In this document: positions 1,050-53,745 of the stretch, piece by piece | How positions within the stretch are numbered: position 1 is the stretch's first letter | Layout: every line of letters starts with the position of its first letter | Source: Bacteroidia bacterium | GTDB lineage: Bacteria; Bacteroidota; Bacteroidia; DATLTG01 | NCBI GenBank assembly: GCA_039924845.1 | Contig: JBDTAC010000073.1 | Location: 8,614-72,613, forward strand | Direction: 5' to 3' | DNA length: 64,000 bases | Position numbers and translations under genes: made by a program | The notes under the pieces: generated by a model | Database searches by the model: none | Told to the model about the DNA's origin: nothing | Seen by the model: the letters and a program-made list of their open reading frames with translations, nothing else

Positions 1050-1165
1050 CTTATTTTGTGAAACAAATGTACTATATAAAGGGAAATGAAACGTCCGAAA
1101 TTAGCGTTTGAAAAATTATTTTTTGAAAGCCTCTTTTGCATTATATCGTATATTTGTTTTGATTT

Positions 1166-2071: not shown

Positions 2072-2184
2072 TTCTCCGGAAATAGTGCTTCGAAAAATTA
2101 TTTTTTTGAACGTGTTTTTTCTTCTCCTTTACAGCGTGCGAATCAGCGCTTATTTTCCTTACTTTTGAAAAAAATAAAATAATT

Positions 2185-4678: not shown

Positions 4679-4712
4679 TAAGGCTTCGAAAAATTAATTT
4701 TTCGAAGCCTTA
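4679..4712. terminator. bidirectional hairpin terminator, perfect 34-bp palindrome taaggcttcgaaaaattaatttttcgaagcctta
   Basis: Perfect inverted repeat with G/C-containing outer arms and an AAAAATTAATTTTT centre. It lies between the convergent hypothetical gene and dxs. Confidence 0.7.
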
Positions 4713-6672: not shown

Positions 6673-6807
6673 AGGTATGAAAATTTAATTTTTGCACGGG
6701 ACATTCTTCCATTGAAAAAATAGGCTTTGAAAAAATATTTTTTTGAAGGCATTATTTCTGTATCAAAAACTAATTCGAAGAAAAACTATCTTTGCAAAAA
6801 ATAAATC

Positions 6808-7845: not shown

Positions 7846-7877
7846 TGTCATTCTGAACGCAGTGAAGAATCTGCACG
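7846..7877. repeat. short hairpin repeat copy 1: tgtcATTCTgaacgcagtgaAGAATctgcacg
   Basis: Same flanks and 5-bp ATTCT/AGAAT stem as the copies at 22541-22564 (inverted), 22594-22620 and 25184-25215; the loops differ. Confidence 0.6.
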
Positions 7878-7899
7878 TTTGAAAAATATTTTTTCAAAC
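7877..7899. terminator. palindrome gtttgaaaaatattttttcaaac after trpS
   Basis: Perfect 23-bp inverted repeat with the conserved A/T core. An A-rich run precedes it and an imperfect hairpin (aaaaatcccgca..ttgcgagattttt) follows at 7911-7946, before the convergent peptidase gene. Confidence 0.55.
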
Positions 7900-7973
7900 A
7901 AGAAAAAACAAAAAAATCCCGCATTATTTATTGCGAGATTTTTCATTTGAAAAAATAATTTTTTGAACTATTT

Positions 7974-9500: not shown

Positions 9501-9680
9501 GAGAATAGATATATAAATAAAGGCTTTCGTGCAAATATAATTATATTTTTTATTGAAAAAATTTTCTGGCGAATACAGATTTTATCTTCGAAAAAATATT
9601 TTTTTGAAGACCTTTTTTTCGTTCAAAATTTCGTGTTTGAAAAAATTATTTTTAGAGCACGTAAAATCCACAAATAAATT

Positions 9681-12518: not shown

Positions 12519-12586
12519 GTAAAACGATAATTTGGATATCCGCGCAATTAGTATAAATTTGTGCTTCCAAAAAAATATTTTTTCAA

Positions 12587-13171: not shown

Positions 13172-13209
13172 GCGTCTCGAAAAAATATTTTTTCGAGACG
13201 CTTTTTTTT
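13172..13209. terminator. rho-independent-type terminator gcgtctcgaaaaaatattttttcgagacgc + T8
   Basis: Perfect 30-bp palindrome (8-bp G/C arms around A6-TAT-T6) followed by TTTTTTTT, downstream of efp. Confidence 0.8.
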
Positions 13210-13317
13210 GCGTTCAAATTTTAGCGAAGATTTCTCAAATAAATGTACCTTTGAATCGTATTAATCTTGGCTATTTAAAATAGTTTCATTACGAAAAATG
13301 AAAAAATATTTTTACAG

Positions 13318-15785: not shown

Positions 15786-16916
15786 ATGGCAGGTATTTAC
15801 ATTCATATTCCTTTTTGTAAGCAGGCGTGCAATTATTGCGATTTTCATTTTTCTACTTCTTTGAATCAAAAAAATAATTTTTTGGAGGCTTTAAAAAATG
15901 AAATTTTTCTTCAAAAAAATTACCTAGAAAAGCAAAAAATAAAAACGATTTATTTCGGAGGAGGAACTCCTTCGATACTTTCTGCGGATGAGTTAAATGT
16001 TATTTTTGAAGAAATTCAAAAACAGTTTGACATTGCTTCAGACGCAGAAATAACAATAGAAGCCAATCCTGATGATTTATCTCCGACTAAAATAAAGGCG
16101 TTGAAAAATAATTTTTTCAATCGATTTAGTATTGGCATTCAAAGTTTTTTTGATCGAGATTTGAAATTCATGAATCGTGCACACACTTCTACGGAAGCCA
16201 TTTCTTCTGTAAAAGGCTTGCAGGATGCGGGTTTTGAAAATATTTCCATCGATTTAATTTATGGAATTCAACGGTTAAGTGATGCGCGTTGGAAAATTAA
16301 TTTACAAAATGCCTTCGAGTTAGAAGTGAAACATATTTCAGCATATTGCCTGACAGTAGAGCCTCGTACGGCTTTGGCACATGCTATCAAAAATAAAAAA
16401 ATCGAAAATATAGACGATCAACAAGGAGCATCTCAGTTTGAAATAATGTTGGAGGAGATGAAAAAAAATAATTTTTTGCAGTATGAAATTTCCAATTTTT
16501 GTCGCGACAATTATTTTTCAAAACACAATAGTAATTATTGGTTAAAAGAACATTATTTAGGATTGGGACCTTCCGCACATTCTTACAACGGCAATAGCAG
16601 ACAATGGAATGTGGCGAACAATGTGCGTTATATACAGGCATTGAATGAAAATAAATTGGATATTGAAAAAGAAGATTTAACACCTCAAAAAAATTATAAT
16701 GAATATATTTTAACTTCGCTGAGAACGATGTGGGGAACGGATTTGAACTACATCGAAACTAATTTTGGAACTGATTTTTTGAAACAATGTTTGAATGAAT
16801 CTGAAAAATATATTCAGTCGAAAGATATTTTATTACAAGAAAAGAAATTATTTTTAAGCGATAAAGGAAAATTAATCGCAGATAAAATTGCGTCCGAACT
16901 TTTTAGTATTAATTAA
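15786..16916 (+). CDS. hemW: radical SAM heme chaperone HemW (coproporphyrinogen III oxidase-like)
   Basis: 376 aa. N-terminal GIYIHIPFCKQACNYCDF CxxxCxxC radical-SAM motif and HemN_C-like tail. Confidence 0.85.
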   Translation: MAGIYIHIPFCKQACNYCDFHFSTSLNQKNNFLEALKNEIFLQKNYLEKQKIKTIYFGGGTPSILSADELNVIFEEIQKQFDIASDAEITIEANPDDLSPTKIKALKNNFFNRFSIGIQSFFDRDLKFMNRAHTSTEAISSVKGLQDAGFENISIDLIYGIQRLSDARWKINLQNAFELEVKHISAYCLTVEPRTALAHAIKNKKIENIDDQQGASQFEIMLEEMKKNNFLQYEISNFCRDNYFSKHNSNYWLKEHYLGLGPSAHSYNGNSRQWNVANNVRYIQALNENKLDIEKEDLTPQKNYNEYILTSLRTMWGTDLNYIETNFGTDFLKQCLNESEKYIQSKDILLQEKKLFLSDKGKLIADKIASELFSIN

Positions 16917-16922
16917 AAAAAT

Positions 16923-17675
16923 ATGTTTACAACCATCAACCACAAAGGAAAAAATTACAAAACGGATTTATCGCAACCGATGGATATTTCCATTCCCTTG
17001 CGTGCTGGAGTTGATAATGTAAATGCTTGGTACGTTCCACCAGTAACAATGGAGCCTGTTAGAAATGCAGATTTTATTGGTGCTGTAAGTGAAGGTGGTT
17101 CCGTAAATTTCAGGAATATTTTTTTTAATCCGCACGGAAATGGTACGCATACCGAATGTGTAGGACATATCAGCAAAGAATTTTACAGTATTAATCAGTG
17201 TTTGAAAAATTATTTTTTCATCGCACAAGTCGTTACTATTTTACCAGATGAATTGGAAAATGGAGATCAGATTATTACTAAAAAACACATCGAAAATTGT
17301 TTGGACGGAAATCATCCTGAAGCGATAATTATTAGGACGTTGAGTAATCCTATTTCAAAAATTAATTTTCAATATTCCAATTCCAATCCTCCTTTTTTAC
17401 ATCACGAAGCAGCTAAATACATCGTGGATAGTGGTATCCAGCATTTATTAATTGATCTTCCTTCGGTTGATAAAGAAAGAGATGACGGAAAATTATTGGC
17501 ACATCATACTTTCTGGGAATATCCTCAAAACACGCAAAAACATCGAACCATCACCGAATTAATTTATGTGCCGAATACTATTTTAGATGGAGAATATTTT
17601 TTGAATTTACAAATAGCCAGTTTCGAAAACGATGCGAGCCCAAGTAAACCCGTGCTTTTCCGCTTGGTAAAATAA
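16923..17675 (+). CDS. cyclase family protein (kynurenine formamidase-like)
   Basis: 250 aa with an HGNGTHTECVGH metal-binding motif typical of the putative cyclase/arylformamidase family. Confidence 0.7.
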   Translation: MFTTINHKGKNYKTDLSQPMDISIPLRAGVDNVNAWYVPPVTMEPVRNADFIGAVSEGGSVNFRNIFFNPHGNGTHTECVGHISKEFYSINQCLKNYFFIAQVVTILPDELENGDQIITKKHIENCLDGNHPEAIIIRTLSNPISKINFQYSNSNPPFLHHEAAKYIVDSGIQHLLIDLPSVDKERDDGKLLAHHTFWEYPQNTQKHRTITELIYVPNTILDGEYFLNLQIASFENDASPSKPVLFRLVK

Positions 17676-19504: not shown

Positions 19505-19548
19505 TAAAAAAGCGCCTCGAAAAAATATTTTTTCGAGGCGCTTTTTTT
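19505..19548. terminator. bidirectional terminator A7-gcgcctcgaaaaaatattttttcgaggcgc-T7
   Basis: Perfect 30-bp palindrome with an A-run before it and a T-run after it, between convergent genes. A second copy of the A/T word follows at 19549-19577. Confidence 0.8.
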
Positions 19549-32128: not shown

Positions 32129-32170
32129 AAAAAAGGGCTTTGAAAAATTAATTTTTCAAAGCCCTTTTTT
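32129..32170. terminator. bidirectional terminator A6-gggctttgaaaaattaatttttcaaagccc-T6
   Basis: Perfect 30-bp palindrome flanked by A- and T-runs, between convergent genes. Confidence 0.8.
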
Positions 32171-32187: not shown

Positions 32188-33366
32188 TTATTTCACGCTG
32201 ATCAGTTGTACATCAAATGTAAGCGTTGCTTTTGCAGGAATAACAGGCGGTCTACCTTGTTCTCCATACGCTAAATTATACGGAATAATCAATCTGAATT
32301 TATCGCCTTCGTGCATCAATGCAATGCCTTCTTCCCAACCGGGTATTACTCTTTTTTCGCCTAACGGAAATTCAATTGGTTGCCCACGTTCAACGGAAGA
32401 ATCGAAAATGCTACCATCCTCTAAATAACCGGTATAATCTACTTTTACCGTTTTTCCCGCTTCTGCTTTAGCACCAGTACCTTGGCTTATCACAATGTAT
32501 TGTAAACCACTTGCAGTTGTTTGCACTTTTTTTCCTTGAATATCATAAGGAGTGGGTTTAGGCTCTGGTGCAATATTTATCATTTCCACATCAAAAACCA
32601 AAGTAGCTGCGGGAGGAATAGGACCATACCCTTTTTCGCCATACGCAATGTTATACGGAATAATCAATCGCGCTTTATCACCTTTGTGAAGCAATAGCAA
32701 GGCCTCGTCCCAACCTTTAATTACTTGTCCTTTACCCACATTAAACGAAAAAGGTTCTCCGCGTTGAACAGAAGAGTCAAACATTTTTCCGTCCAATAAA
32801 TAACCGCTGTAATTCACGGTAACTTTATCTCCTTTTACTGCTTTAATACTATCAGGATTTGATTTTACGAGAATGTATTTTAATCCGGAAGCAGTTGTAA
32901 TGGTATCTTTTCCTGCAATATCAAAAGGACGAGGAGCAGGAGTTACTTTTACCAATTCCACATCAAATTTAAGCGTAGAATTGGCAGGAATTTTTCCTAC
33001 TACTTTATCTGCGTAAGCCAAACTTGGAGGAACAACAAATGATGCTTTGTCACCTTCGTGCATTAGCATAATTCCTTCGTCCCAACCTTTTATTACATCT
33101 CCATCTCCAATTCGGAAAGTATAGGCTTTTCCGTGTTTTTCAGATGCATCAAAAACGGTATCGTTCATTAATTTTCCCACATAATTTACCGTTACCATAT
33201 CGCCTTTTTGTGGCTGAATGCCGGTTCCTTTAGTAGTAATCATATACTGCAATCCGTCCGAAGTTGTTGTCATTACGGGAGCTTTTGGCGTTTTACGAAA
33301 TAGCTTGCACGAAGGGAAAATTAAAATTCCGACAGCAGCACATACGATAAAAATATTTTTTTTCAT
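32188..33366 (-). CDS. FKBP-type peptidyl-prolyl cis-trans isomerase lipoprotein with three tandem FKBP domains
   Basis: 392 aa. Lipoprotein signal (...LIFPSC). Three repeats of the FKBP_C signature (GDxVxVxYxGxLxDGxxFDSS...GxGxVIxGWDEG...PxxLAYG). Confidence 0.85.
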   Translation of the reverse strand: MKKNIFIVCAAVGILIFPSCKLFRKTPKAPVMTTTSDGLQYMITTKGTGIQPQKGDMVTVNYVGKLMNDTVFDASEKHGKAYTFRIGDGDVIKGWDEGIMLMHEGDKASFVVPPSLAYADKVVGKIPANSTLKFDVELVKVTPAPRPFDIAGKDTITTASGLKYILVKSNPDSIKAVKGDKVTVNYSGYLLDGKMFDSSVQRGEPFSFNVGKGQVIKGWDEALLLLHKGDKARLIIPYNIAYGEKGYGPIPPAATLVFDVEMINIAPEPKPTPYDIQGKKVQTTASGLQYIVISQGTGAKAEAGKTVKVDYTGYLEDGSIFDSSVERGQPIEFPLGEKRVIPGWEEGIALMHEGDKFRLIIPYNLAYGEQGRPPVIPAKATLTFDVQLISVK

Positions 33367-33388
33367 TCTGATTTAATGGATTGAAAAA

Positions 33389-34333
33389 TTATTTTTTTGC
33401 AACTGATTTTCCTTTGATTATTTTCACGATACTGATATCAAACAATAAAGGAGAATACGGTTGTATCATTCCGCCCGGAGACATTTCACCATAAGCCATT
33501 GATGATGGGATCAAAACTTCTGCTTGTTCACCTTCGTTCATCATTTGCAATACTTCATCCCAACCTTTGATAACAGCATTTACTCCAACTGGAAATTTAA
33601 CCGGTTTAGAATTCGCGCCTCTATCAGAAGTATCAAATACAGTTCCGTCCAACAACATGCCTTTGTAAGTTACTTGCACTGTATCTCCAGCAATTGCTTT
33701 CGGACCTTTTCCTTTTGTTTTTTCGATGAAATAAATTCCACTTGCAGTTGGTGCTACGGTAATTTTATTATCCGTAATGTATTTTTGAATGGTTCCTGCT
33801 TCTTGTCCTTTACGCAAATCAGTTTCAGCTTTTCTTTTTTGCATTGCCTCTTGCTGCTCTTTTTGAGCTTCTTCTTTCGACATAACACCCACTAATTTTA
33901 CTTCAAACGTAAGCATTGTACCAGCTTCCGCATATTTTGGAAGTGTTTTTGCTTTGAATGTTTTTAAATAAACAGAATCGGAGCTAAGTTTGAAACTTGC
34001 GCTATCGCCTACGGACATCATACTTAAGGCATCTTCAAAACTTCCTTGGAAAGTGGATTTTGCCAAAGGAAAACGGATAGCACCGCTGCTATCTCTCGAA
34101 AATCTTTTTGAATCAAACAGAGTAGAATCCTTCCCGTTTTTATACAACATTTTTACGGAAACAATGTCTCCTTCTTTTGGATGTTGTCCTTTGTCATTTT
34201 GTTTGTAAAATTTGTAATACAAACCTGTTGTATCTTTTTTGTAACCAGGATAAGGTGATTGGCTGCACGATGCGAAAATAAAAATTCCGGAAGTGAGCAA
34301 TAATACGCTTGTTTTGAAAGAAAAAATTTTCAT
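33389..34333 (-). CDS. FKBP-type peptidyl-prolyl isomerase lipoprotein (FkpA-like, N-domain + FKBP)
   Basis: 314 aa. Lipobox ...FASCSQ and a C-terminal FKBP domain (GDTVQVTYKGMLLDGTVFDTS...VIKGWDE). Confidence 0.8.
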   Translation of the reverse strand: MKIFSFKTSVLLLTSGIFIFASCSQSPYPGYKKDTTGLYYKFYKQNDKGQHPKEGDIVSVKMLYKNGKDSTLFDSKRFSRDSSGAIRFPLAKSTFQGSFEDALSMMSVGDSASFKLSSDSVYLKTFKAKTLPKYAEAGTMLTFEVKLVGVMSKEEAQKEQQEAMQKRKAETDLRKGQEAGTIQKYITDNKITVAPTASGIYFIEKTKGKGPKAIAGDTVQVTYKGMLLDGTVFDTSDRGANSKPVKFPVGVNAVIKGWDEVLQMMNEGEQAEVLIPSSMAYGEMSPGGMIQPYSPLLFDISIVKIIKGKSVAKK

Positions 34334-34364
34334 GTTTTTTGAATTGATTGTTTTTAATTTATTT

Positions 34365-35258
34365 TTAATTGACGTTTAAAAGTTCTACTTCGTAAATAAC
34401 TGTTGTGTATGGTGGCACCATTTTATTGGATGAACCATTTTCCCCAAAAGCAAGTTGCGAAGGTATAATAAATTTTGCTTTCCCACCTTGTTTCATTAAA
34501 GAAATTCCGGAAGCGAGCCCTGCAATAACCTGATCCTGCTCTCCCAATACAAATTCGAACGGTACGCGTGTGGAATCAAACAATCGTCCATCCATAAAAT
34601 AACCTTTATAATTAACTCTTACAGATGTTCCTTCTTCTGCATTTTTTCCCGTTCCGTCCTTTTCAGGGAGATAATAAATACCGCTCGAAATGGGTGAAAG
34701 ATTTAATTTTTCAGTTTTTAAATAGTGCTGTAATTTTTCGCGTTCTATCAAATCCATATCGTCCGTCATTTCTTGTAGATGCGCCATTTCTTTGCTGTAT
34801 TCATCCGCCGTTAAAATTTTCACCAATTTGGTTTCTATTTTTACCAAACTTCCGGAGTGGATAAAAACGGGCAAGGTTTTCAGTTTCAAAAATTGATTGC
34901 AAAGAGAATCTGCATTCACTAAAAAGGTCAAACTATCACCTTCGTTCATTTCTGGAAAATATTCTTCAAAACTTCCTGAAAAACTTGGTTTGCTTTTAAA
35001 AGGAATAAACGCTGCGCCATCACTGTATAAAGCTTCTTGCGTATTTAAAAATACGGAATCTTTTTCCGTTTTATATACCATTTGTAATTCCAAATAATTT
35101 CCGATAACGGGGCGTTTACGACTGTCTTCGAAAGATTGTAATTTGTAAAATAAACCAGAATCTGTTTCTGTAAAACCAACGTGTTTTTCTGTTTTTTTCT
35201 GACACGAAAAAACAAAACAAAGAGAACTAAAAAGGAGTAGAAAAAATATTTTTTTCAA
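34365..35258 (-). CDS. FKBP-type peptidyl-prolyl isomerase lipoprotein
   Basis: 297 aa. Lipobox ...VFSCQ and a C-terminal FKBP domain (GTSVRVNYKGYFMDGRLFDST...VIAGLASG). Confidence 0.8.
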   Translation of the reverse strand: MKKIFFLLLFSSLCFVFSCQKKTEKHVGFTETDSGLFYKLQSFEDSRKRPVIGNYLELQMVYKTEKDSVFLNTQEALYSDGAAFIPFKSKPSFSGSFEEYFPEMNEGDSLTFLVNADSLCNQFLKLKTLPVFIHSGSLVKIETKLVKILTADEYSKEMAHLQEMTDDMDLIEREKLQHYLKTEKLNLSPISSGIYYLPEKDGTGKNAEEGTSVRVNYKGYFMDGRLFDSTRVPFEFVLGEQDQVIAGLASGISLMKQGGKAKFIIPSQLAFGENGSSNKMVPPYTTVIYEVELLNVN

Positions 35259-35264
35259 ACAGAT

Positions 35265-35810
35265 TTATTTTAAAGATACCAATTCAAGATCATACACTAC
35301 ACTGGCTTTCGGCGGAATTTTTTCACGATCACCCACCATTCCTGCTGCCAAGTTAGAAGGTAAAATGAAAACGGCTTTATCGCCCACGTGCATCAGTTGC
35401 ACGGCTTCGTGCAATCCGGTTTCTACTTGGTCTTTACCAATCAAAAAACTTTTCAAACCTTCTTTGTCTGACGAATAACAAAGCGTGCCGTCCAACAAAC
35501 TAATCGTAAATTTCACTACCGCCGTTTCACCTGCTTTGGCTTGTTCGCCGTTTCCTTTTTGATAAATCCAATAATAAATTCCGGATGCAGTAGCTTGCAT
35601 ATTGTAATGATGGTGATGGATGTATTCTTGAATTTCATCGCGTTCCTGTACGGCAAACATGGTGTTGGAATTAATCAATTTTGTATTCACTTCCACTTGA
35701 GAAAGTGTGTCGGCAGGATTTATTTTTTCGTCTGTTGCGTTATTATTACACGCTTGCGCGAACATTAAAACGGCACTTAAAAAAAACAGTTTCAAAAAAT
35801 AATTTTTCAC
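35265..35810 (-). CDS. FKBP-type peptidyl-prolyl isomerase lipoprotein (GldI-like size/architecture); GTG start
   Basis: 181 aa. Lipobox MFAQAC and a single FKBP domain. The only in-frame start upstream of the signal peptide is GTG at 35810. Confidence 0.7.
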   Translation of the reverse strand: MKNYFLKLFFLSAVLMFAQACNNNATDEKINPADTLSQVEVNTKLINSNTMFAVQERDEIQEYIHHHHYNMQATASGIYYWIYQKGNGEQAKAGETAVVKFTISLLDGTLCYSSDKEGLKSFLIGKDQVETGLHEAVQLMHVGDKAVFILPSNLAAGMVGDREKIPPKASVVYDLELVSLK

Positions 35811-36831: not shown

Positions 36832-36862
36832 AATTTTTTTTTGAAAAGGAATGCAAATTTAG

Positions 36863-36899
36863 AAAACTGTTTGGATGTAGCTTCAAAAAATTATTTTTT
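36863..36899. repeat. 37-nt perfect direct repeat, left copy (aaaactgtttggatgtagcttcaaaaaattatttttt)
   Basis: Identical to 39236-39272. Contains TTTG...(18 nt)...TTATTTTT, which resembles a Bacteroidetes sigmaA -33/-7 promoter, and ends in the A/T word. Confidence 0.7.
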
Positions 36900-36971
36900 A
36901 TAATCTATTTAAGATTTGGAAAAAAAAGGTAGTTTCGCGGTCTATTTTTAAACTAATAATAAAAAAAATTT

Positions 36972-39170
36972 ATGAAAAAAACATTACTTTCTTTTTTGAG
37001 TGCTGCTGCTTTCTGCCTGATGGCATTAAACGGTAACGCTACGGGTTGTATTCCGAACTATCCTGCAGGATGCGGGGTTGCAACTATTTCTATTCCATCT
37101 GGAGGGGCAACTAATGGTTGGTCTCCATGGCAATATATTTTTGGAGATCCAATTCCGAGTGGTTCGTATATCACAGGAATAGATTTAACATATACTGCTG
37201 TTGATCAAGGATGGGGAGGAACAGGCGCAAATAGTACTATGAATGTACAAGGTGTTAATATTGGTTATGGCACGCTTCTACATACTTCTCAAACTTTTAA
37301 CCTCACTTACTCGGGGACTTTTCCAAATTATAGATACGGAATGAATGATACGTTAAGTATGTATTTCGTTGGATGGAGTGGTTGGCAAGCCAACTGGCAA
37401 GGTGGAACAATGACAATTCATTATAGTAACTTGCCTATTGTAACAAGCCAATGTGGTGTTTCTCTTACAGCACCAACTACCACAAATACTTGTGCTGCAA
37501 CAATTACTGGTACTACAGCTACTGTTTTTCCGGATACTGCACAAGGCGCAAGTATAGTTAATTGGCAATTCGCGAGTGGCTTGGATACTATTATCGTTGG
37601 TCAAAAAGTTATTATTCATGACACGATTGCTCCTGTTCCTAATGCTGCATCGTTACCAAATGTTACAGCACAATGTACCATCGATTCAATAATACCACCA
37701 ACAGCAACAGATAATTGTACTGGTACTATTACAGGAACGACAACTACTGTATTTCCGATTTCGGCTCATGACACTACCATTGTTATTTGGACGTTTAGAG
37801 ATGGGCACGGAAACACTTCCACTCAAAGTCAAAATGTAATTATTAATGATATTACCCCTCCAAATCCTCCTGTAGGAGTTTTGCCTGGAACTGTGGTAGT
37901 TACTATTCCATCTGGAGGGGCAACTAATGGTTGGTCTCCATGGCAATATATTTTTGCAGATCCAATTCCGAGTGGTTCTTACATCACGGGAATAGACTTA
38001 ACCTATACTGCCGTTGATCAAGGATGGGGAGGAACAGGCGCGAACAGCACTATAAATATCCAAGGGATTAATATGGGTTATGGTACACTTCTACATACTC
38101 CACAAACTTTTAATCTCAGTTACACTGGGGCTTTTCCAAACTATAGATACGGAATGAATGATACGTTAAGTATGTATTTCGTTGGATGGGGCGGTTGGCA
38201 AGCCAATTGGCAAGGTGGAGTGATGACAATTCATTACAGTAGTTTACCTGTTGTTACAAGCCAATGTACTGTTGCTTCCATAACAGCACCAACAACTACG
38301 GATAATTGTGCAGGTACTATTACTGGTACAACAACTACGGTATTCCCTATTTCAACGCAAGGTACAACCGTTGTTAATTGGAAATTTACAGATAATAATT
38401 CAAATTCGATCACAATACCTCAAACGGTTATTATCCATGATACAATTGCTCCAGTTCCTAACGTGGCATCTTTGTCAAATGTAACAAGTCAATGTACAAT
38501 TGATTCGGTAACCGCACCAACAGCAATGGATAATTGTGCTGGAACGATAACAGGAACAACAACTACAGTATTTCCGATTTCAACACAAGGTACAACAGTA
38601 GTTACTTGGACGTTTAACGATGGTAATGGGAATACATTTACCCAAAGCCAAAATGTAATTGTCCGCGATACAATTGCTCCTGCATCAGATTCTACATCTT
38701 TGATAGATGTTGTAAGTTGTGTGCCAATTGACTCAATTGCTGCTCCATTTGGGACAGATAATTGCATGGGCTCTGTTAGAGGGACAACGACCACAACGTT
38801 TCCGATATCTACTGTTGGAACAACTGTAGTTACTTGGACGTTTAGTGACGGTAATGGAAACTCATCTACTCAAACTCAAAATGCAATTGTTGAGAATTGT
38901 ACAGGTATAGCAACTTATACAGAATCAAATTCATTCAATGTTTTTCCTAATCCAACTTCTGGAATGTTTACTATTGTTGAAGGAAATACGAGTTTGATTG
39001 AGAACTCTACAATAACAATTAGTGATATTCTAGGAAAACAAATCTACAGTATTCAACCAGGTAAATTGCAAACATTAGTTGATTTGCGCGAATACACAAA
39101 TGGAGTATATTTTGTTAGAATAAGTTCAAAAAACAGTGTAAAAACGATTAGATTGGTACTCATCAAATAA
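36972..39170 (+). CDS. T9SS C-terminal sorting-domain (type A) surface protein with six HYR-like repeats and two copies of a ~125-aa N-terminal module
   Basis: 732 aa. Signal peptide, HYR-like TDNC.GTITGTTTTVFP repeats, and a C-terminal Por secretion tail (...NVFPNPTSGMFTI...GVYFVRI...). Confidence 0.8.
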   Translation: MKKTLLSFLSAAAFCLMALNGNATGCIPNYPAGCGVATISIPSGGATNGWSPWQYIFGDPIPSGSYITGIDLTYTAVDQGWGGTGANSTMNVQGVNIGYGTLLHTSQTFNLTYSGTFPNYRYGMNDTLSMYFVGWSGWQANWQGGTMTIHYSNLPIVTSQCGVSLTAPTTTNTCAATITGTTATVFPDTAQGASIVNWQFASGLDTIIVGQKVIIHDTIAPVPNAASLPNVTAQCTIDSIIPPTATDNCTGTITGTTTTVFPISAHDTTIVIWTFRDGHGNTSTQSQNVIINDITPPNPPVGVLPGTVVVTIPSGGATNGWSPWQYIFADPIPSGSYITGIDLTYTAVDQGWGGTGANSTINIQGINMGYGTLLHTPQTFNLSYTGAFPNYRYGMNDTLSMYFVGWGGWQANWQGGVMTIHYSSLPVVTSQCTVASITAPTTTDNCAGTITGTTTTVFPISTQGTTVVNWKFTDNNSNSITIPQTVIIHDTIAPVPNVASLSNVTSQCTIDSVTAPTAMDNCAGTITGTTTTVFPISTQGTTVVTWTFNDGNGNTFTQSQNVIVRDTIAPASDSTSLIDVVSCVPIDSIAAPFGTDNCMGSVRGTTTTTFPISTVGTTVVTWTFSDGNGNSSTQTQNAIVENCTGIATYTESNSFNVFPNPTSGMFTIVEGNTSLIENSTITISDILGKQIYSIQPGKLQTLVDLREYTNGVYFVRISSKNSVKTIRLVLIK

Positions 39171-39190
39171 TTGTAAAACACCATAATTTA

Positions 39191-39224
39191 AGGGCTGTCT
39201 TAATACAAGACAGCCCTTTTTTTG
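39191..39224 (+). terminator. rho-independent terminator agggctgtctt-aataca-agacagccct + T7
   Basis: 10-bp G/C-rich stem, 6-nt loop and a U-run immediately downstream of the stop at 39170. Confidence 0.85.
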
Positions 39225-39235
39225 TTATTAATTAT

Positions 39236-39272
39236 AAAACTGTTTGGATGTAGCTTCAAAAAATTATTTTTT
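39236..39272. repeat. 37-nt perfect direct repeat, right copy
   Basis: Identical to 36863-36899. It lies 60 bp upstream of the esterase gene. Confidence 0.7.
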
Positions 39273-39331
39273 TGATTTTCTTTATCTTCGTCAAAAAATA
39301 AATGATGTATAGAGAAGAACAGCAATATAAA

Positions 39332-41352: not shown

Positions 41353-41425
41353 GATGCTTGTTTTTTAACTTGATTTTTAGACCTTCAAAAAAATAATTTT
41401 TCAAACGTGTTTTTTAACTTCAAAA

Positions 41426-41457
41426 TAAAAAAGGAATTCCGAAGAACTCCTTTTTTT
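41426..41457 (-). terminator. hairpin terminator downstream of dnaA (A7-ggaattccgaagaactcc-T7)
   Basis: Imperfect 7-bp stem flanked by A- and T-runs, 25 bp past the dnaA stop. Confidence 0.55.
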
Positions 41458-41481: not shown

Positions 41482-42912
41482 TTACTGAATGCTGATTTTT
41501 TTATTCAATTCATCGATGTATGCTTTAAAGCGTTTGTCGGTATCCATTAAATTATTAACGGTACGACAAGCGTGTAAAACCGTTGCGTGGTCTTTTCCTC
41601 CGCAATGCAAACCAATGTTTGCTAAAGAAGATTTTGTCATACTTTTTGCAAAATACATTGCTATTTGACGCGCTTGAACCACTTCTCTTTTACGTGTTTT
41701 TGATTTCAATAATTCGAGTGGCAAATCAAAATAATCGCATACTACTTTTTGAATATAATCAATGGAAACTTCTCTGGCTGTGTTTTTTACAAACTTGTCA
41801 ATCATTGATTTGGCAAGCTCCATCGTGATTGCTTTTTTATTAAGCGATGATTGTGCGAGCAAAGAAATCAAAGCTCCTTCTAATTCACGAACGTTGTTGG
41901 TGATGGAGTATGCAAGGTATTCGATGACATCTTTCGGAAGTTCCAATCCATCAGCATATACTTTTTTCTCTAAAATTGCAATTCTGGTTTCTACTCCTGG
42001 AACTTGTAAATCCGCGGATAGTCCCCATTTGAAGCGAGACAACAAGCGTTGTTCCATTCCTTGCATTTCTACGGGAGCCTTATCGGAAGTTAATACCAAT
42101 TGTTTGCCAGTTTGGTGTAAATGATTAAAAATATGGAAAAATACATCTTGTGTTTTTTCTTTCCCTGCTAAAAATTGAACATCATCAATAATTAGCACAT
42201 CAATCATTTGATAAAAATGTATAAAATCATTTTGATTATTATTTTTTACGGAATCAATAAATTGATGTGCAAATTTTTCGGAAGCCACATACAATACTGT
42301 TTTACTTGGAAAATTATTTTTAATTTGAATTCCGATTGCATGCGCCAAGTGTGTTTTTCCTAAACCAGCGCCGCCATAAATCAACAAAGGATTGAATGCG
42401 GTTCCGCCCGGTTTGTTGGCTACTGCAAATCCGGCAGAACGAGCCAAACGATTACAATCTCCTTCAATAAGATTTTCGAAAGAATAATTGGAATTCAATT
42501 GTGATTCAACCGTCAAACTTTTTAATCCGGGAATAATAAATGGATTGCGAATTGTTTTTTGATTCAAATCAATGGGCATTGCCACCGAGTGATTTTTCAA
42601 ATCTTTTTTTCCAGAGGTAGGAATTTTAACGGTGTAAGGTTTCGCATTTGTTTGCGAATTTTCCATGATGATGCTATACTCCAAGCGACCTTCGCTGCCT
42701 AATTCTTTACGTACTGTTTTCTTTAATAAAGTAACATAATGTTCTTCTAACCATTCGTAAAAAAATTGACTTGGAACTTGTATTGTTAAAACACTTCCGT
42801 TTAATTTAATTGGTTTAATTGGGTCAAACCATGTTTTGAAATTTTGTGAGCTAACATTGTCTTTTACTATTTCCAGACAATTTTCCCAAATTTTTACGTG
42901 TGTCTTCTCCAT
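41482..42912 (-). CDS. dnaA: chromosomal replication initiator protein DnaA
   Basis: 476 aa. N-terminal DnaA_N, AAA+ Walker A GGAGLGKTHL, Walker B IDDVQF, sensor motifs and a C-terminal DNA-binding domain. Confidence 0.9.
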   Translation of the reverse strand: MEKTHVKIWENCLEIVKDNVSSQNFKTWFDPIKPIKLNGSVLTIQVPSQFFYEWLEEHYVTLLKKTVRKELGSEGRLEYSIIMENSQTNAKPYTVKIPTSGKKDLKNHSVAMPIDLNQKTIRNPFIIPGLKSLTVESQLNSNYSFENLIEGDCNRLARSAGFAVANKPGGTAFNPLLIYGGAGLGKTHLAHAIGIQIKNNFPSKTVLYVASEKFAHQFIDSVKNNNQNDFIHFYQMIDVLIIDDVQFLAGKEKTQDVFFHIFNHLHQTGKQLVLTSDKAPVEMQGMEQRLLSRFKWGLSADLQVPGVETRIAILEKKVYADGLELPKDVIEYLAYSITNNVRELEGALISLLAQSSLNKKAITMELAKSMIDKFVKNTAREVSIDYIQKVVCDYFDLPLELLKSKTRKREVVQARQIAMYFAKSMTKSSLANIGLHCGGKDHATVLHACRTVNNLMDTDKRFKAYIDELNKKISIQ

Positions 42913-43292
42913 TACTTGTGCTACTATTAAAATGTGATATTATATCGAAGTAGTTAATTTCTACTTTAGTTCAATTTTTCTTCAAATGTAATTTTTTCTA
43001 ATTGCAACGGCTAAAGTTTTCAAAAAAAAAGTTTCATTTTTTTTTCAGTTTGCTATTGACTTTATCATTTTTTTTATTCTGACTTTTTTATTTTTTTAGC
43101 GAATGAAGAAAATATGCTGATTTTGCTACAATCTTCAAACGCTTGCAATGATAAGCCTTTTTGTTGAGAAATAAGTTGAAAATAAAAAAATATTTTTTTT
43201 TAGAAAAAATATTTCGTGTTTGTTTTTTTGTATATTGTTTCCGCGAAAAAATAATTTTTCAAGGGCTGAAAAAAATATTTTTTTTAACGCTC

Positions 43293-43952: not shown

Positions 43953-46900
43953 TTATTCTCCGCTATTGCTGATGTGTCTTAAGAATGCTGATTTCTTATT
44001 CAAGGTAGAAAGATTAAAATAATACGTTCCGCCTTGTGCTTTATCTCCTTTTTGTTCACGTTTATCTGGTTTCAAACTACTGATGGCATTATTGAAATTG
44101 GCATCGGATGAAATCGCTTGCATGGTTCCGCGTGCATAATTAAAATAATACCAATTATTACCGTCCAACTCAATATAAATATTAAGTTCATCGCCGGCTC
44201 TGTTCTTTTTAAACTCAATGTGTCCGTTCACATATTTATTGATTTGAGTTTTGTTGAAATTGCCAATACCTATTTTTCCACTTGATATAAAAGAGCGAGT
44301 TTGTGGATTCCATTTCATTTGTACGTCGGTAAAGAACATACTTTTTTTCAATTCATCTGGAAATTTTTTAAATGATCCGTACAAATTTACTTGGGAAATT
44401 AATTTGTCGGCTTTATCTTTTCCAAGCAATTCTCTCAAGCCTTTTTCGTATTCAGGCTTAGAGAAATCAATGGAGTTAAGTCCGGCATAATTGTTAATGG
44501 CTTCACCCATTTTCTGGATGGCATTTTCGTCGAAGAAAAAATCCAAACTAAACATGAGATGAAAAGCAGTTGAATCCGGAATTAAATAATGCGTAATATT
44601 TCCAACGGTATTCATTTGCACTTGTCCGTAATCGGTTCCTACATTTATTTTTCCTTCCCCATAAACGATACATTTATTAACATTCAAGCTTAAATAATTT
44701 CCTGTTAAATTTCGTTCTACCAATTTCTCTTTATTGGATATTCTATATTCTGTGGAAGCCTTATCGTAAAATAAAAATCCTGTTGCAGGCAATAATTGAA
44801 TGTCTTGTCGCCCGACGATTTTCGATAGGAAGGCAGAATAAATTCTAGTAGAATCTTTCGTGTACATAATAGAAGCTGCAATTTTATTGCCTTTGTCATC
44901 GTAAAGCGTATCTGAAACTGGAATGTAAATTTGTTCTGGATTTATTTCAGAAGTAAAAGCAAACCAGGTTTTGCTAACAGCATCGCAACCATGCTGAATT
45001 CGAGTAGTTCCCGAAAACACTAAAAACTGATTGTTGGCGGCTAATTTTACTTTTCCTTTGTAATCATAATTAGGACTTAGCGTAAAATGAACACTGTCAG
45101 GAATAGTTGTTTCAGCATAGGTTTGCAAGGTAGTGTCCACACTAATATTACTAAAATAAATAGATTCCTTTTTCTTCAATTCATCGATGTAATCATAAAA
45201 GCCGGAGCCAGCATATTTTTTTCGACTAAATACATTTACGGTAGCATTGTATAAATGATGATAACGAGTAGTGGTGTTTGCTAAAATTTTTGCGCTGTCT
45301 AAAGTTTCCATGTATGCCTTTTTCCGAATGATAACCAATCCGTTATTTGGATAAATCAAGGCATCTGCTACACGTATATATTTTACTTCTTTCGCAGTAA
45401 TCACGTATTTTTTCAAATCGTATTTAGCAGAAGGTGCTTTAAATCGCAAAGAATCTTGTTTTGGATGAATGGAAATAAATTCCGAACCAGCTAAGTCAAT
45501 ATCTGAATTTGGGCTTGCCCCGCTGGCAGCAGCTACGTTTGCACTGGCTTTGTTTTTATCGGAACTTAACTCAATACTGTTTTTATCCATTAACCAGTTG
45601 AATTTATCCATAAAACACATGTATTGATTAACCGGGAATTTAACGATTGAACCCTTTCCGTTGGATTTGAAATCACCTTTGCGCTCGTCAAAATTAATGT
45701 GAGCATTCACGTTGGTGGTGGTAAAAGCAAGATTTGCGGTGTCAAGTGCTTTGAGTTGAAAATCGGCCGTATCCGAAAGCATCTCGTGCTGTAAAAAATT
45801 TGTTTTGACTGCAGTTAATTCAGCACCAGAAAAATCGGCTTTTCCATTTCCGGTGAGCACTTTTGGCGTTAAACTAAATTTCCCTGAAAAGGTAGATTGT
45901 CCGTTGAAACATTGAAAAACAGAATCTTTTTTATTGCTCGCATCCATTACATCCAATATAGGAACCCAGTGTATCCGGACGTGCTGCCCGTGAACTTGAG
46001 GAAATTGTGGATTTGTTTTTTGTTCTTTTATATCAAAATTTTGAGCAATTGTATTGGTGGAATCTGGATAAAAAATAAAATTGTTGGATGTTGTTGTAGA
46101 AGTTACATAATCTACGGTTCCATCGCCTCTCAAACCTTGGTTGCTGAGTTTAATTTGATTTTTGAAAACACCTTTTCCGCCATACACGGCAAATCCATCA
46201 GGAGGAGTAGAGCGAATAAATCCAAGCGAATAATCTTTTTGAAGCGTAAGTTGTTCTGCAAACTGAGGAAAAATTCCTGCTGAAACAAAATCACCTTGAA
46301 AATGCAAACTTGCATTTGTGAAATTATCTAAACTGTCAATCGTAAATGGTTTTAAATGAAAATAAAATTTGTCTTTTTTATAGGCGCCTTTTTGAATTGA
46401 TCGCTTGTCGTAATACACATACGCATCCTTGTTACTTTTGAAAATAGGATATTTCGCAAAATCTTTTACGCCTGATTTATTGGCAGGATTATCAATAAAT
46501 AATTCTCCATTGATATTTTGAATAACCGTTTTTACAGGAACTAAGCGATGTTGTCCATAAGGGTCTGCATCAAATGATTCGGCTTTCAAGCGAAGCGAAT
46601 CTACATTGGTTAAATTGATTTTAAAATCATTGTACTCAAATGAAAATACTTTTCCGAAAAAATCAAAGCGCCCAGCGTGCACTATTCCGGCAAAAGTAAA
46701 GTTTCTATTTTTCTTCAAAACTACTTCCGAGTCCTTCGGAAAAATATAAACATTCTGAGAATCGCTTAACAAAATACCAGCTACGCCGTGGATCGTGATG
46801 TCGTAATTCAACAAATTCATGCTGGCATTTATTTGTCCTCGGTTCACAGAGTGAAAATCAAGTACGTCGTAATCTGTTCGACCGGCGTTATCAGTAATGT

Positions 46901-48455
46901 ATTTGAATAGTTTTTCTTTCAAGTGAATTTGATCATTTCCCGTATTAAATGTCAAAAAGCCCATGCTCGCTAATTGGATTAATAAAGGGTGAATGTCATC
47001 CGCAGTATGTCCCATAAATCCGGCTAAATTATCGCCTAAAAAATCGCGCGATCCGCCCAAAGATTTGGAGTAACCGGCAATCGTAATCAACGGACTAACA
47101 TTCGCTTGTCCTTGGATGTTATCGTACAAATCGCGTTTAAAATAATTTGTGGATGCAAAATCCGCAACACCTTGAGAGTTTCCTGGTAACATTTCCATAT
47201 CAATTTTTGGCTCATCTGTTTTCCAAGATAAATATTCGAAGTACATATCCACATTATGATACGTATCAGAATACGGTGTTTTTGAAACTCCTTCATCTGT
47301 GCGGATAAATGTTAAGTGTTTGGTGGCAATGATGTAACGCATTTCTAAATTCGGATGATAAATAGAATCGGTATCCAAAATCATTTTTATGGCTGTTTCT
47401 GGACAAAGAATTCGGTCTTTACGGATGTCAAAACTTTTCGCGGAAGCAACAATAAAAATAGAATCGTTTCTTTTAAAATACAAATAAGCATTTTCAGTAG
47501 CACTTCCAGAGCCAATAAATTTTCCGCCTCTCATCGAAAAACCTCCATCGTAATCCACATTCGGAGCAATATTTTTAATTGAGAAACGCTTGTTATACGA
47601 ATCAAAACGCGGAAAAGAATTAACACCTTTTGCTTCTGCCACATCTTTGTCGTTTAACACTCCGATAAGTGGCTTATCAAAATATTTTTTTTGATAAAAA
47701 ATAACAGAATCTGCCGTGTAACCGCCTGTTTTCAGAATGATGTGATATGTATTTAATTGTGCGAAAATAGTATTCGCATCCAAACTATCTCGCGACCAAT
47801 CTACTTTCCCTCCATAACCGTCCCATTTATTCGTCAAAGGATAGAAAACGCCTTTTGTATTGTAAATAAAAGTACTATCAGAGCGTTCATTTAAGCAGCG
47901 CAAATTAGCGCTTGGAAAAATAATTTTTGGAACCTCGTTTTCATAAACCATTTGATAATTACTGGTGCTCGAACTCCATTTGTAAGTGGGCGAAGTATAA
48001 AAAGTATTGGAGCCAAAGAGGTTCGCGCTCATCACGACAAAGTCAGTATAATTTTTGATTGTTCTGCCCGTCAGCATGCTGTGCAAGGTAGCTTGCCATA
48101 CTTCAAAATTTTTATCAGATTGTCCAGAATTGACAAAATTATTCAGTGCATCTAAATAATTTTTAAAATCAGGAAAAGGGCGCATGCGTTTTTTTAACAT
48201 TAAATTACATACATCATAAGCTGCTTGTTTGTATTTATCGGTAAATTTAGGCGCATTCCACGATATGGTAAATTGCTCCATGTATGTTTTTATTTCTTTT
48301 TTGTTGCCGTTTCCGCTTTCGAAAAAGTCGTGCAATTCGCTCAGAAATTTAACTGGATCAGAGGTAAATTGAACCAGTTTGCTTTGTGCATTTGCATTCG
48401 GATGAATGAAAAACAATCCGATAAAAAGTGCAATAATAAAGTTGAATTTTTTCAT
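43953..48455 (-). CDS. very large (1500 aa) secreted hypothetical protein
   Basis: Uninterrupted 4.5-kb ORF with an N-terminal signal peptide (IHPNANAQ). No catalytic or sorting-domain motif recognised. Confidence 0.6.
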   Translation of the reverse strand: MKKFNFIIALFIGLFFIHPNANAQSKLVQFTSDPVKFLSELHDFFESGNGNKKEIKTYMEQFTISWNAPKFTDKYKQAAYDVCNLMLKKRMRPFPDFKNYLDALNNFVNSGQSDKNFEVWQATLHSMLTGRTIKNYTDFVVMSANLFGSNTFYTSPTYKWSSSTSNYQMVYENEVPKIIFPSANLRCLNERSDSTFIYNTKGVFYPLTNKWDGYGGKVDWSRDSLDANTIFAQLNTYHIILKTGGYTADSVIFYQKKYFDKPLIGVLNDKDVAEAKGVNSFPRFDSYNKRFSIKNIAPNVDYDGGFSMRGGKFIGSGSATENAYLYFKRNDSIFIVASAKSFDIRKDRILCPETAIKMILDTDSIYHPNLEMRYIIATKHLTFIRTDEGVSKTPYSDTYHNVDMYFEYLSWKTDEPKIDMEMLPGNSQGVADFASTNYFKRDLYDNIQGQANVSPLITIAGYSKSLGGSRDFLGDNLAGFMGHTADDIHPLLIQLASMGFLTFNTGNDQIHLKEKLFKYITDNAGRTDYDVLDFHSVNRGQINASMNLLNYDITIHGVAGILLSDSQNVYIFPKDSEVVLKKNRNFTFAGIVHAGRFDFFGKVFSFEYNDFKINLTNVDSLRLKAESFDADPYGQHRLVPVKTVIQNINGELFIDNPANKSGVKDFAKYPIFKSNKDAYVYYDKRSIQKGAYKKDKFYFHLKPFTIDSLDNFTNASLHFQGDFVSAGIFPQFAEQLTLQKDYSLGFIRSTPPDGFAVYGGKGVFKNQIKLSNQGLRGDGTVDYVTSTTTSNNFIFYPDSTNTIAQNFDIKEQKTNPQFPQVHGQHVRIHWVPILDVMDASNKKDSVFQCFNGQSTFSGKFSLTPKVLTGNGKADFSGAELTAVKTNFLQHEMLSDTADFQLKALDTANLAFTTTNVNAHINFDERKGDFKSNGKGSIVKFPVNQYMCFMDKFNWLMDKNSIELSSDKNKASANVAAASGASPNSDIDLAGSEFISIHPKQDSLRFKAPSAKYDLKKYVITAKEVKYIRVADALIYPNNGLVIIRKKAYMETLDSAKILANTTTRYHHLYNATVNVFSRKKYAGSGFYDYIDELKKKESIYFSNISVDTTLQTYAETTIPDSVHFTLSPNYDYKGKVKLAANNQFLVFSGTTRIQHGCDAVSKTWFAFTSEINPEQIYIPVSDTLYDDKGNKIAASIMYTKDSTRIYSAFLSKIVGRQDIQLLPATGFLFYDKASTEYRISNKEKLVERNLTGNYLSLNVNKCIVYGEGKINVGTDYGQVQMNTVGNITHYLIPDSTAFHLMFSLDFFFDENAIQKMGEAINNYAGLNSIDFSKPEYEKGLRELLGKDKADKLISQVNLYGSFKKFPDELKKSMFFTDVQMKWNPQTRSFISSGKIGIGNFNKTQINKYVNGHIEFKKNRAGDELNIYIELDGNNWYYFNYARGTMQAISSDANFNNAISSLKPDKREQKGDKAQGGTYYFNLSTLNKKSAFLRHISNSGE

Positions 48456-48465
48456 GATTGAAAAA

Positions 48466-52266: not shown

Positions 52267-52284
52267 CGTCAAAAAAATAATTTT

Positions 52285-52821
52285 TTAAGCGCTTATTTTT
52301 ATCAGTGCAAAAATAGCATAATTAATCATATCGTAGTAATTGGCGTCAATTCCTTCTGATATAAGCGTTGCGCCTTTGTTATCTTCTATTTGTTTTACGC
52401 GCAAAAGTTTCATCAAAATTAAATCCGTTAAAGAGCTGGTTCGCATGTCGCGCCATGCTTCTCCGTAATCGTGATTTTTATTTTCCATTAAATTTTTCGC
52501 GGCAAACGCATATTTATCGTACAAAGGTGAAATTTCTTCCGCGCTTAATTCCATGCGTTCATCATTTAGCAAATCTAATTGTATCAAGGCAATTACGCAA
52601 TAATTCACAATTCCAATGTATTCCGATTTAATGTCATCTCCCACCTTTTGCGTACCTTTATCTTCGATGCTTCGGATGCGTTGTGCTTTGATAAAAATTT
52701 GATCGGTGAGAGAACTCGGGCGTAAAATCCGCCACGCGCTTCCATAGTCTTTCATCTTCTTAATAAAAATATCTTTGCATTGTTTGATGGCTGCATCAAA
52801 TTGAATGGAAGTAGTATTCAT
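52285..52821 (-). CDS. DUF1599-like protein (duplicated ~80-aa domain)
   Basis: Two internal repeats (KDYGSAWRILRPSSLTDQIFIKAQRIRSIED / HDYGEAWRDMRTSSLTDLILMKLLRVKQIED). Start set to ATG 52821 so it does not overlap folP. Confidence 0.6.
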   Translation of the reverse strand: MNTTSIQFDAAIKQCKDIFIKKMKDYGSAWRILRPSSLTDQIFIKAQRIRSIEDKGTQKVGDDIKSEYIGIVNYCVIALIQLDLLNDERMELSAEEISPLYDKYAFAAKNLMENKNHDYGEAWRDMRTSSLTDLILMKLLRVKQIEDNKGATLISEGIDANYYDMINYAIFALIKISA

Positions 52822-53710: not shown

Positions 53711-53745
53711 GGTTCAGAAAAATATTTTTTCGAACCGCTTTTAAT
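53711..53745. terminator. near-perfect palindrome ggttcagaaaaatattttttcgaacc + gcttttaat
   Basis: 5-bp G/C arms plus the A/T core (one mismatch, or a G.U pair in RNA), 6 nt after the folP stop. Confidence 0.6.

Follow-up and report, generated by a model that had tools for sequence, protein, structure and literature searches.

A lineage-restricted AT palindrome, over-represented at the DNA level, at the tips of putative intrinsic terminators in an uncultured Bacteroidia bacterium

A 64-kb stretch of chromosomal DNA from an uncultured Bacteroidia bacterium (GC 35%), referred to below as the window, is densely populated by a 14-nt, A/T-only palindrome of the form A5-W-TA-W-T5, the core. An initial annotation of this DNA singled out seven sites built around the core and described them as perfect palindromes with a constant centre and compensating G/C arms. 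All seven are present where they were reported. As a family, however, they are a small minority of a far larger one, most of whose members lack pairing arms. The arrangement is probably best understood as a set of intrinsic terminators whose tips host a lineage-specific palindrome that is over-represented at the level of DNA. The suggestion that selection acts on the centre sequence is borne out, in that the centre is under pressure of its own.

The core is abundant relative both to chance and to other genomes. One form of the core, AAAAAATATTTTTT, is found 54 times in the window at no more than one mismatch, compared with 1.65 ± 1.34 occurrences in dinucleotide shuffles. The exact A5WTAWT5 core occurs 44 times in the window and once in 1.21 Mb from other relatives, a set of 83 Bacteroidota loci, many with a GC content equal to that of the window. 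Window copies at 0, 1, and 2 mismatches number 44, 34, and 53 (0.69, 0.53, and 0.83 per kb). The corresponding densities are 0.26, 0.45, and 1.16 per kb in a sister species and 0.001, 0.03, and 0.22 per kb in the other relatives. The sister species is the nearest other lineage, with ~81.5% nucleotide identity in syntenic genes (loci L081, L273, and L274) and amino acid identities to the window of 78% for HemW and 94% for Dxs; ~15 kb of its sequence was examined, with ~6 kb of orthologous aligned sequence. All remaining public relatives are far more distant (EF-P ≤76% and Dxs ~84% identity), a scan of the genome collection with EF-P giving 76% as the closest match and none nearer, and in relatives with Dxs at 84% or EF-P at ≤76% identity the core falls to about zero. 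A scan of IMG/VR with a degenerate 19-mer of the motif returned 65 contigs with one match apiece, and a metagenome scan returned at least 120 stretches, nearly all of them lone chance matches. An unrelated metagenome contig (L206, 48-252) has three pattern matches at a spacing of 92-94 nt inside a tandem repeat, a chance occurrence. Searching the literature for the motif string turned up no relevant report.

The window sequence is not an assembly artefact, because two independent Logan assemblies, the only other assemblies of the window species, agree with it at 99.99-100% identity. The HemW protein encoded in the window is 100% identical to one from an NCBI metagenome-assembled genome labelled 'Bacteroidia bacterium'. 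Logan assemblies of the same strain stop exactly inside perfect palindromes, L271 at window position 19520 and both L278 and L279 at 63976. The ending of these independent contigs within the elements indicates that perfect palindromes break short-read assemblies. The gene map was refined by Pfam hits and public gene calls, with gene starts being approximate, and includes the housekeeping genes dxs, efp-lpxD, hemW, tpiA, folP, and dnaA as well as type IX secretion components.

The pressure on the motif reaches into protein sequence. Cores inside genes number 16, against 4.5 ± 1.75 by synonymous-codon permutation (maximum 10 in 500 runs), a 3.5-fold excess. Peptides that the core can encode in its three frames, K[KN]YF[FL], [KEQ]K[IL][IF]F, and K[NI][NI]F, occur 36 times per 20,205 residues of open reading frame (ORF) in the window and 12 times per 92,885 in relatives with GC <0.365, a 14-fold difference. 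Individual cases come from HemW, in which the consensus K[DE]AFL has become KNNFL in both the window species and the sister species, a conserved TP[IV] at about codons 107-111, precisely at a core-like stretch of the DNA, has given way to NFF in the window and SFF in the sister species, and a derived V/I-to-L change completes the T-run and the YR flank of a third copy (Table 1). These three in-gene copies arose by substitution, since they align to homologues without indels. Within a cyclase-family gene, the sister species keeps the core at the same place as A6TAT6 instead of A5TTAT6. Across 11 aligned sites, the window is closer to the consensus at 8 and the sister species at 1, with most sites shared in position.

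Several hits (31462, 33348, 35241, and 54949) encode N-terminal signal-peptide starts of the MKKIF type. Together with a codon usage strongly biased to AAA and TTT, they are what would be seen if the core were a compositional by-product of an AT-rich genome, arising from K, N, I, Y, and F codons, MKKIF starts, and AT-rich spacers. Hardly any credence can be given to this explanation, however. Relatives of equal GC (0.32-0.36) have essentially no core, neither the dinucleotide shuffles nor the synonymous permutations reproduce the observed counts, and the bases on either side of the core conform to a specific consensus, TTYR/YRAA. Composition alone is excluded as the origin of the pattern.

The centre had been described as an invariant A6-TAT-T6. 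It is instead an even palindrome of 14 nt with TA at its dyad, and it varies: AAAAAATATTTTTT is found at sites 13172, 19512, and 63968, AAAAATTAATTTTT at 4679 and 32135, and a one-base-shorter form, AAAAATATTTTTT, at 7877 and 53711. The full element is a 22-bp dyad, TTYR-A5WTAWT5-YRAA, composed of two statistically independent 11-bp half-sites with the extended half-site consensus (A/T-rich)-(weak GGC)-T-T-Y-R-AAAAA-W-T. Independence is evident at the two W positions, which are A..T in 17 copies, T..A in 2, and mixed in 25, compared with ~19, 5, and 20 expected from the marginals. The TTYR flank preference is also present in the copies within coding sequence. Arm positions -5 to -8 carry at most 0.4 bits.

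Taken as a whole, the core family gives no RNA-level signal of pairing or orientation. When each copy is folded with 12-nt flanks and compared with flank-shuffled controls, very stable hairpins are formed by four copies (five counting the copy at the window edge), a handful are intermediate at -6 to -9 kcal/mol, and ~30 fold no better than the controls. Overall, stable folding is found in ~5-9 of the 44 copies, and stable pairing arms are absent in ~80-90%. A gapless alignment of 43 copies is 64.8% paired compared with 63.5 ± 1.2% after shuffling, which is no excess, and covariation in 43 copies is 0.178 compared with 0.164 in shuffles; for these two measures, 76-79 of 500 shuffles score as high. 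Permutation of the right arms with the four strong exact-core hairpins removed gives 2.72 complementary positions of 8, compared with 2.85 ± 0.18. Genes and tandem spacers show no sense-strand wobble preference (G..T 4 versus A..C 10). Nor is there any orientation in 17 tandem spacers, in which the mean T-run downstream in the sense direction (4.06) equals the mean A-run upstream (4.12). An Rfam scan of the window detected tRNA only, with no family match to the core. The proposal that the arms co-vary to keep pairing is not supported across the 43 testable copies, where pairing and covariation are at shuffle level, and the argument from compensating arms was circular because the sites had been chosen as palindromes. 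An RNA processing or binding site, also raised in the initial annotation, is unlikely given the missing G.U preference and sense T-run and the presence of copies in divergent spacers and, in all three frames, in coding sequence.

Five of the seven sites (4679, 13172, 19512, 32135, and 63968) are perfect palindromes, with predicted RNA folding energies of -17.5 to -26.9 kcal/mol. The palindromes at 7877 and 53711 have imperfections and fold weakly (-7.7 and -8.9 kcal/mol). Judged from sequence, these five appear to have the anatomy of factor-independent terminators, as do weaker sites at 2085 and 55883. A stable GC-containing stem (z -6.3 to -8.7) lies 15-31 nt past a stop codon at 4679, 13172, 19506, 32129, and 63965, each site having its own unrelated GC-rich stem. 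A U-tract on the transcribed strand is clear at 13172 (T8), 19506 (T6/A6), and 32129 (T6/A6), weak at 4679 and 53711, and absent at 7877. Six of the seven sites do follow a stop codon closely, at a distance of 5-31 nt; the exception is 7877. That site is probably a stand-alone copy of the core; the actual terminator of its spacer would be the core-less hairpin at 7912-7943.

The terminator reading of the initial annotation is supported by the anatomy of several sites. Site 13172 has a stem and U8, and 19506 and 32129, where A6-stem-T6/7 lies between convergent genes, are of the bidirectional type. Bracketing by an A-run and a T-run, claimed for four sites, is seen at 19512, 32135, and 63968 (where the window cuts the T-run), whereas it is weak at 53711 and reduced to T8 at 13172. 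The A-run/stem/T-run layout is thus present in three of the five terminator-like core sites. Core-less hairpins of the same bidirectional style also occur in the window (Table 1), and the core stands exactly at the dyad in about 6 of its roughly 13 real strong hairpins.

The efp locus shows what this position looks like elsewhere. In most of 18 relatives, efp is followed at the corresponding place by a GC-rich stem with an unrelated loop of 4-9 nt and then by a T-run, and among the relatives examined the AT core is found there in the window genome only. Ordinary, unrelated terminator hairpins therefore occupy the orthologous locus, albeit in distant relatives only; the initial annotation had named such an outcome as one that would refute its interpretation. 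In the closest EF-P relative (76% identity), efp ends in a perfect 28-nt palindrome with the apex GAAAATTTTC (L001, 10587-10614), so AT-palindromic hairpin tips, with another motif, occur outside the clade as well. No core-bearing terminators were seen in the ~15 kb of the sister species, where about two would be expected, a difference that is not significant. The spacer downstream of dxs is strongly diverged in the relative with 94% Dxs identity.

Table 1. Positions of the core-bearing sites, related hairpins, and exact cores in the 64-kb window.
Position	Strand	Feature	Predicted RNA folding	Setting
4679-4712		34-nt perfect palindrome; core AAAAATTAATTTTT at 4689-4702	-19.6 kcal/mol, z -6.5	between convergent 114-aa ORF (stop 4662) and dxs (stop 4717; dxs by Pfam); 3' U-tract UUCUUU
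7877-7899		imperfect 23-nt palindrome GTTTG-A5TAT6-CAAAC, A5 facing T6	-7.7 kcal/mol	100 nt past stop of trpS-like gene
13172-13201	+	efp terminator (putative), 30-nt perfect palindrome, arms GCGTCTCG/CGAGACGC, core AAAAAATATTTTTT, then T8	-19.6 kcal/mol, z -6.3	
19506-19547		42-nt perfect palindrome A6-GCGCCTCG-core-CGAGGCGC-T6 (30-nt 19512-19541 extended)	-26.9 kcal/mol, z -8.7	between convergent genes, stops 19490 and 19584
32129-32170		42-nt perfect palindrome A6-GGGCTTTG-AAAAATTAATTTTT-CAAAGCCC-T6 (30-nt 32135-32164 extended)	-23.7 kcal/mol, z -7.1	between convergent genes, stops 32105 and 32188
53711-53736	+	imperfect 26-nt hairpin with bulge, GGTTCAG-A5TAT6-CGAACC	-8.9 kcal/mol, z -3.3	5 nt past folP stop (folP by Pfam); U-tract CUUUUAAU
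63965-64000	+	perfect palindrome of at least 36 nt, AAA-CACGTTTG-core-CAAACGTG-TTT, A6 before it, cut by window end	-17.5 kcal/mol	~30 nt past stop at 63936
2085-2121	+	weak core hairpin needing G.U pairs, then T6	-6.3 kcal/mol, z -1.85	21 nt past meaB-like stop
9585-9610		extra core hairpin TCTTCG-core-TGAAGA, then T7 on + strand	-9.1 kcal/mol	both neighbouring genes on - strand
55883-55918	+	imperfect core hairpin GCGTCG-AAAAAATAATTTTT-CGAATGC, then T6	-9.3 kcal/mol, z -1.75	6 nt past PorP/SprF-like stop
7912-7943		core-less bidirectional terminator hairpin (putative)		7877 spacer
39190-39218		core-less bidirectional terminator hairpin (putative)		
41427-41456		core-less bidirectional terminator hairpin (putative)		
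15869-15882		core encoding KNNF (K[DE]AF at same place in wider family)		in hemW
16104-16117		core-like AAAAATAATTTTTT		in hemW
16463-16476		core encoding KKNNFL		in hemW
17205-17218		core		in cyclase-family gene
53361-53374		core encoding VKKYFLE		in folP
1111-1124		core		divergent spacer
6730-6743		core		divergent promoter spacer, dxs / trpS-like gene
36886-36899		core		divergent spacer
12570-12583		core		3 nt upstream of efp ATG
13301-13314		one-mismatch copy		before lpxD; also in sister species
48461-48474		core; TTA (TAA on - strand) is the prmA stop		fills 10-nt operon junction; next ATG 5 nt beyond
43185-43283		three exact cores (43185, 43246, 43270)		AT-rich spacer upstream of dnaA
Starts of all exact cores: 1111, 2093, 4224, 4689, 6730, 7950, 9591, 10424, 12570, 13180, 14257, 15869, 16463, 17205, 18730, 19520, 19556, 19958, 23752, 26067, 28366, 29339, 29744, 29980, 32143, 33384, 35241, 35794, 36886, 39259, 41388, 43185, 43246, 43270, 48461, 49106, 49975, 52272, 53361, 55891, 55926, 56173, 56567, 63976		exact 14-nt core		

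Non-coding DNA contains 28 of the exact cores in 6.0 kb (4.66/kb) and coding DNA 16 in 58 kb (0.28/kb), a 17-fold difference in density. An exact core is present in 19 of the 28 spacers of at least 50 nt, and most intergenic cores lie 0-40 nt past a stop codon. By spacer type, the density is 11.1 per kb between convergent genes, 6.1 between tandem genes, and 1.3 between divergent genes. This gradient fits either a function at gene 3' ends or accumulation where constraint is lowest. The former is the basis of an alternative in which the AU-rich apex is itself functional in 3'-end formation, as a factor-recognised loop or RNase site, with the copies in genes representing spill-over, for example by short-patch gene conversion from thousands of intergenic copies. 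In its favour, the density is greater the more gene 3' ends a spacer contains, most intergenic cores lie shortly past stops, and about half the strong hairpins have the core exactly at their dyad. The alternative is nevertheless improbable. Tandem spacers show no orientation bias relative to transcription, in either the T-run or the wobble pairs, and the W/W positions that would close the loop act as independent half-sites. Most copies have no stem and there is no Rfam family match. Copies additionally lie directly before start codons, in operon junctions, and in genes.

Cores occupy the divergent promoter spacer between dxs and the trpS-like gene, where a terminator is not expected, and two similar divergent spacers. 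Four lie 3-5 nt before an ATG (12570, 13301, 48461-48474, and 52272-52285). The core at 33384-33397, like the one at 48461, fills an operon junction, and its TAA serves as a stop codon. The hairpin at 9585 has its T-run the wrong way for a sense terminator, and the cores at 9585-9619 and 41388-41413 both have T6-7 on the + strand amid - strand genes only; if anything, they would halt only antisense transcription. A promoter or UP-element role was considered and rejected. The core is located ~50-60 nt or more, at a variable distance, from TAnnTTTG-like -7 boxes, and such a role is excluded because the divergent spacers, which contain only promoters, are the poorest in cores.

Two other features lie close to cores upstream of genes. 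The dnaA gene is on the - strand (41482-42912). The spacer upstream of it (380 nt, 42913-43292) is highly AT-rich, contains long runs of both bases, and may be a replication origin or its unwinding element. A 53-nt repeat with 89% identity between its copies (36859-36911 and 39232-39284) precedes two + strand genes, for an HYR-domain protein with a type IX secretion system (T9SS) tail and for an esterase. Each copy ends in a core, and the repeat may be a shared regulatory or promoter module.

The uniform layout of some copies raises a different alternative, namely that a palindromic mobile unit of ~42 bp, akin to a REP or MITE and made up of the AT core between two 8-nt arms with an A-run before and a T-run after them, spreads into intergenic DNA, doubles as a terminator, and decays to core-only remnants. 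The initial annotation had suggested a REP-like unit of this kind. Consistent with such a unit, three copies share the A6/8-nt/14-nt/8-nt/T6 arrangement, and site 13172 matches site 19512 at 95% identity across 37 nt. The arms have a weak GGC...GCC consensus, and positions 9-12 nt from the core are A/T-rich even where the arms do not pair. Some copies occupy divergent spacers, and some have a T-run on the strand that does not suit the neighbouring genes. The DUF502-ORF220 spacer is also 38 nt longer in the window than in the sister species, but the difference is not a clean unit. Several observations make the idea an unlikely one. The arms are not conserved, and the copies show neither a tag of the GTAG/CGTC type nor a target duplication. 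Sharing of arm 4-mers is within chance by a rough estimate; the candidate arm sub-families GCGYCTCG, GGCTTYG, and CACGTTTG were accordingly not significant, shared outer 4-mers being expected by chance among the ~86 half-sites (also an estimate). Of the 44 cores, 16 are in genes, and the HemW copies arose by substitution. Perfect copies outnumber one-mismatch copies in the window, which is therefore unlike a decaying burst. The window has no transposase or RAYT gene.

The preferred reading, that of terminators hosting a DNA-level palindrome, would work as follows. A pressure on DNA, not on RNA pairing, would maintain the motif at a density of about 0.7 copies per kb. A self-complementary, A/T-only block at the tip of a hairpin would merely lengthen the stem, at no cost, and because the tip can bear it in this way the motif would accumulate according to how well it is tolerated, being commonest at gene 3' ends, scarcer in promoter spacers, and rarest in genes. 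The combination of a constant centre with variable, compensating arms would then follow from an AT palindrome sitting freely at terminator tips. As to the pressure itself, selection for binding by an abundant dimeric DNA-binding protein or a methylase may be responsible, as has been proposed for HIP1. Alternatively, it may be a molecular drive such as sequence-biased DNA uptake with recombination, as for the DNA uptake sequences (DUS) and uptake signal sequences (USS) discussed below. A broader version is conceivable but should be regarded as tentative, as the odds are somewhat against it. Here the 22-bp TTYR-A5WTAWT5-YRAA element would be an undescribed genome-wide signal, its two half-sites being recognised by a dimeric protein or by uptake and recombination machinery. 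It would be present in thousands of copies per genome, overwriting terminator loops, operon junctions, and conserved residues, and would constitute a Bacteroidota counterpart of DUS/USS or HIP1.

Several points weigh against the preferred reading. Termination is inferred from anatomy only, and the basis is 64 kb of one genome with ~15 kb of a sister species and an approximate gene map. The in-gene enrichment depends on 16 sites, one protein family alignment, and bulk peptide counts. The convergent > tandem > divergent gradient is equally expected from a true 3'-end function of the core. The identical layout of three copies (A6, 8-nt arm, core, 8-nt arm, T6), together with the 95% identity of sites 13172 and 19512, may point to common descent or to some mechanism of copying. 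None of the known uptake signals is a palindrome. Among the proteins of the window there is no competence gene, methylase, or candidate binding protein, nor a GIY-YIG nuclease or DNA methyltransferase (PrmA is a protein methyltransferase).

Some further features of the window were recorded in passing. Four consecutive genes for FKBP-type peptidyl-prolyl isomerases lie on the - strand at 32188-35810 with core-bearing spacers between them, the first (392 aa) encoding three FKBP domains. An ORF of 1500 aa on the - strand (43953-48455) is without any Pfam match. The HYR-domain/T9SS-tail gene has internal DNA repeats of 200-300 nt (37087-38888), and a gene for a PAS hybrid histidine kinase contains a tandem repeat with a 63-nt period in 4 copies (58751-59060).

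Within a clade of genus level, the motif has gone from being practically absent to a density of about 0.7 per kb. It is present in about half of the strong terminator-like hairpins, and a conserved enzyme has undergone non-synonymous changes toward it. DUS, USS, HIP1, Chi, and REP each indicated a dedicated molecular machine; to our knowledge, and within a limited literature search, no hyper-abundant short motif of this kind is documented in Bacteroidota. If the pressure is biased DNA uptake or a lineage-specific nucleoid protein, the gradient toward the sister species would be a natural experiment for finding the responsible gene. The case also carries a general caution, as a DNA-level motif can give rise, as a side effect, to a conserved loop with compensating arms, a pattern that should not be taken for RNA covariation.

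Ordinary intrinsic terminators share with the window sites a GC-rich stem followed by a U-tract, an upstream A-tract between convergent genes, and a location tens of nucleotides past stops, and the efp locus keeps this position, not its sequence, in most relatives examined. The window sites differ in having no free loop. At the apex they have a fixed AT block of 14 nt, which is self-complementary and contributes 5-6 A-U pairs. Taken in full, each element is a perfect DNA palindrome 30-42 nt long, and the same block is abundant outside hairpins. The NTS/SRM repeats, for which Ssn single-strand nucleases are the dedicated recognition proteins, likewise form hairpins; they number in the hundreds and have a link with transformation (PMC11893778). 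SRMs are, however, GC-rich (ATTCCC-N8-GGGAAT), with oriented flanks and clustering around certain genes, and bear no sequence resemblance to the core; a GIY-YIG gene is also lacking in the window. The REP/BIME elements, mobilised by RAYT, are extragenic palindromes of 20-40 bp that are often located where operons end and for which functions in termination and mRNA stability have been proposed (PMC3733652). REPs conserve the stem and a GTAG/CGTC tag and are extragenic, whereas the window stems differ from one another, have no tag, and accompany a core of which 36% of copies are in genes, and RAYT is not seen in the window.

HIP1 (GCGATCGC), one of the highly iterated palindromes of cyanobacteria, offers a possible parallel, as a hyper-abundant palindrome within and between genes that keeps its position between genomes and has no apparent RNA or peptide function (PMC5861425). 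HIP1 is nonetheless an 8-bp, GC-rich sequence, tied to orphan methyltransferases and fairly evenly spread, whereas the window motif, 14-22 bp long with only A and T in its core, reaches its highest density near gene 3' ends and is confined to a genus-level clade. The DUS of Neisseriaceae and USS of Pasteurellaceae are 9-12-mers that have an orientation and no palindromic symmetry, and it is inverted pairs of them that make up terminator stems, unlike the single self-complementary AT apex described here; the intergenic bias of the window motif is also stronger (17-fold), and uptake machinery is not seen in the window. Terminators contain about half of the DUS/USS copies (10.1101/2025.10.24.684340), and the effect of USS extends to reshaping the proteome (PMC2817400). 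Like the window motif, these signals are clade-specific, occur roughly once per kb, are dominated by perfect copies, shift peptide usage and replace amino acids, and have a large share of their copies in terminators. The independent half-site dyad, the sharp peak at 0 mismatches, the effect on proteins, and the clade gradient of the window motif resemble features of uptake signals and HIP1.

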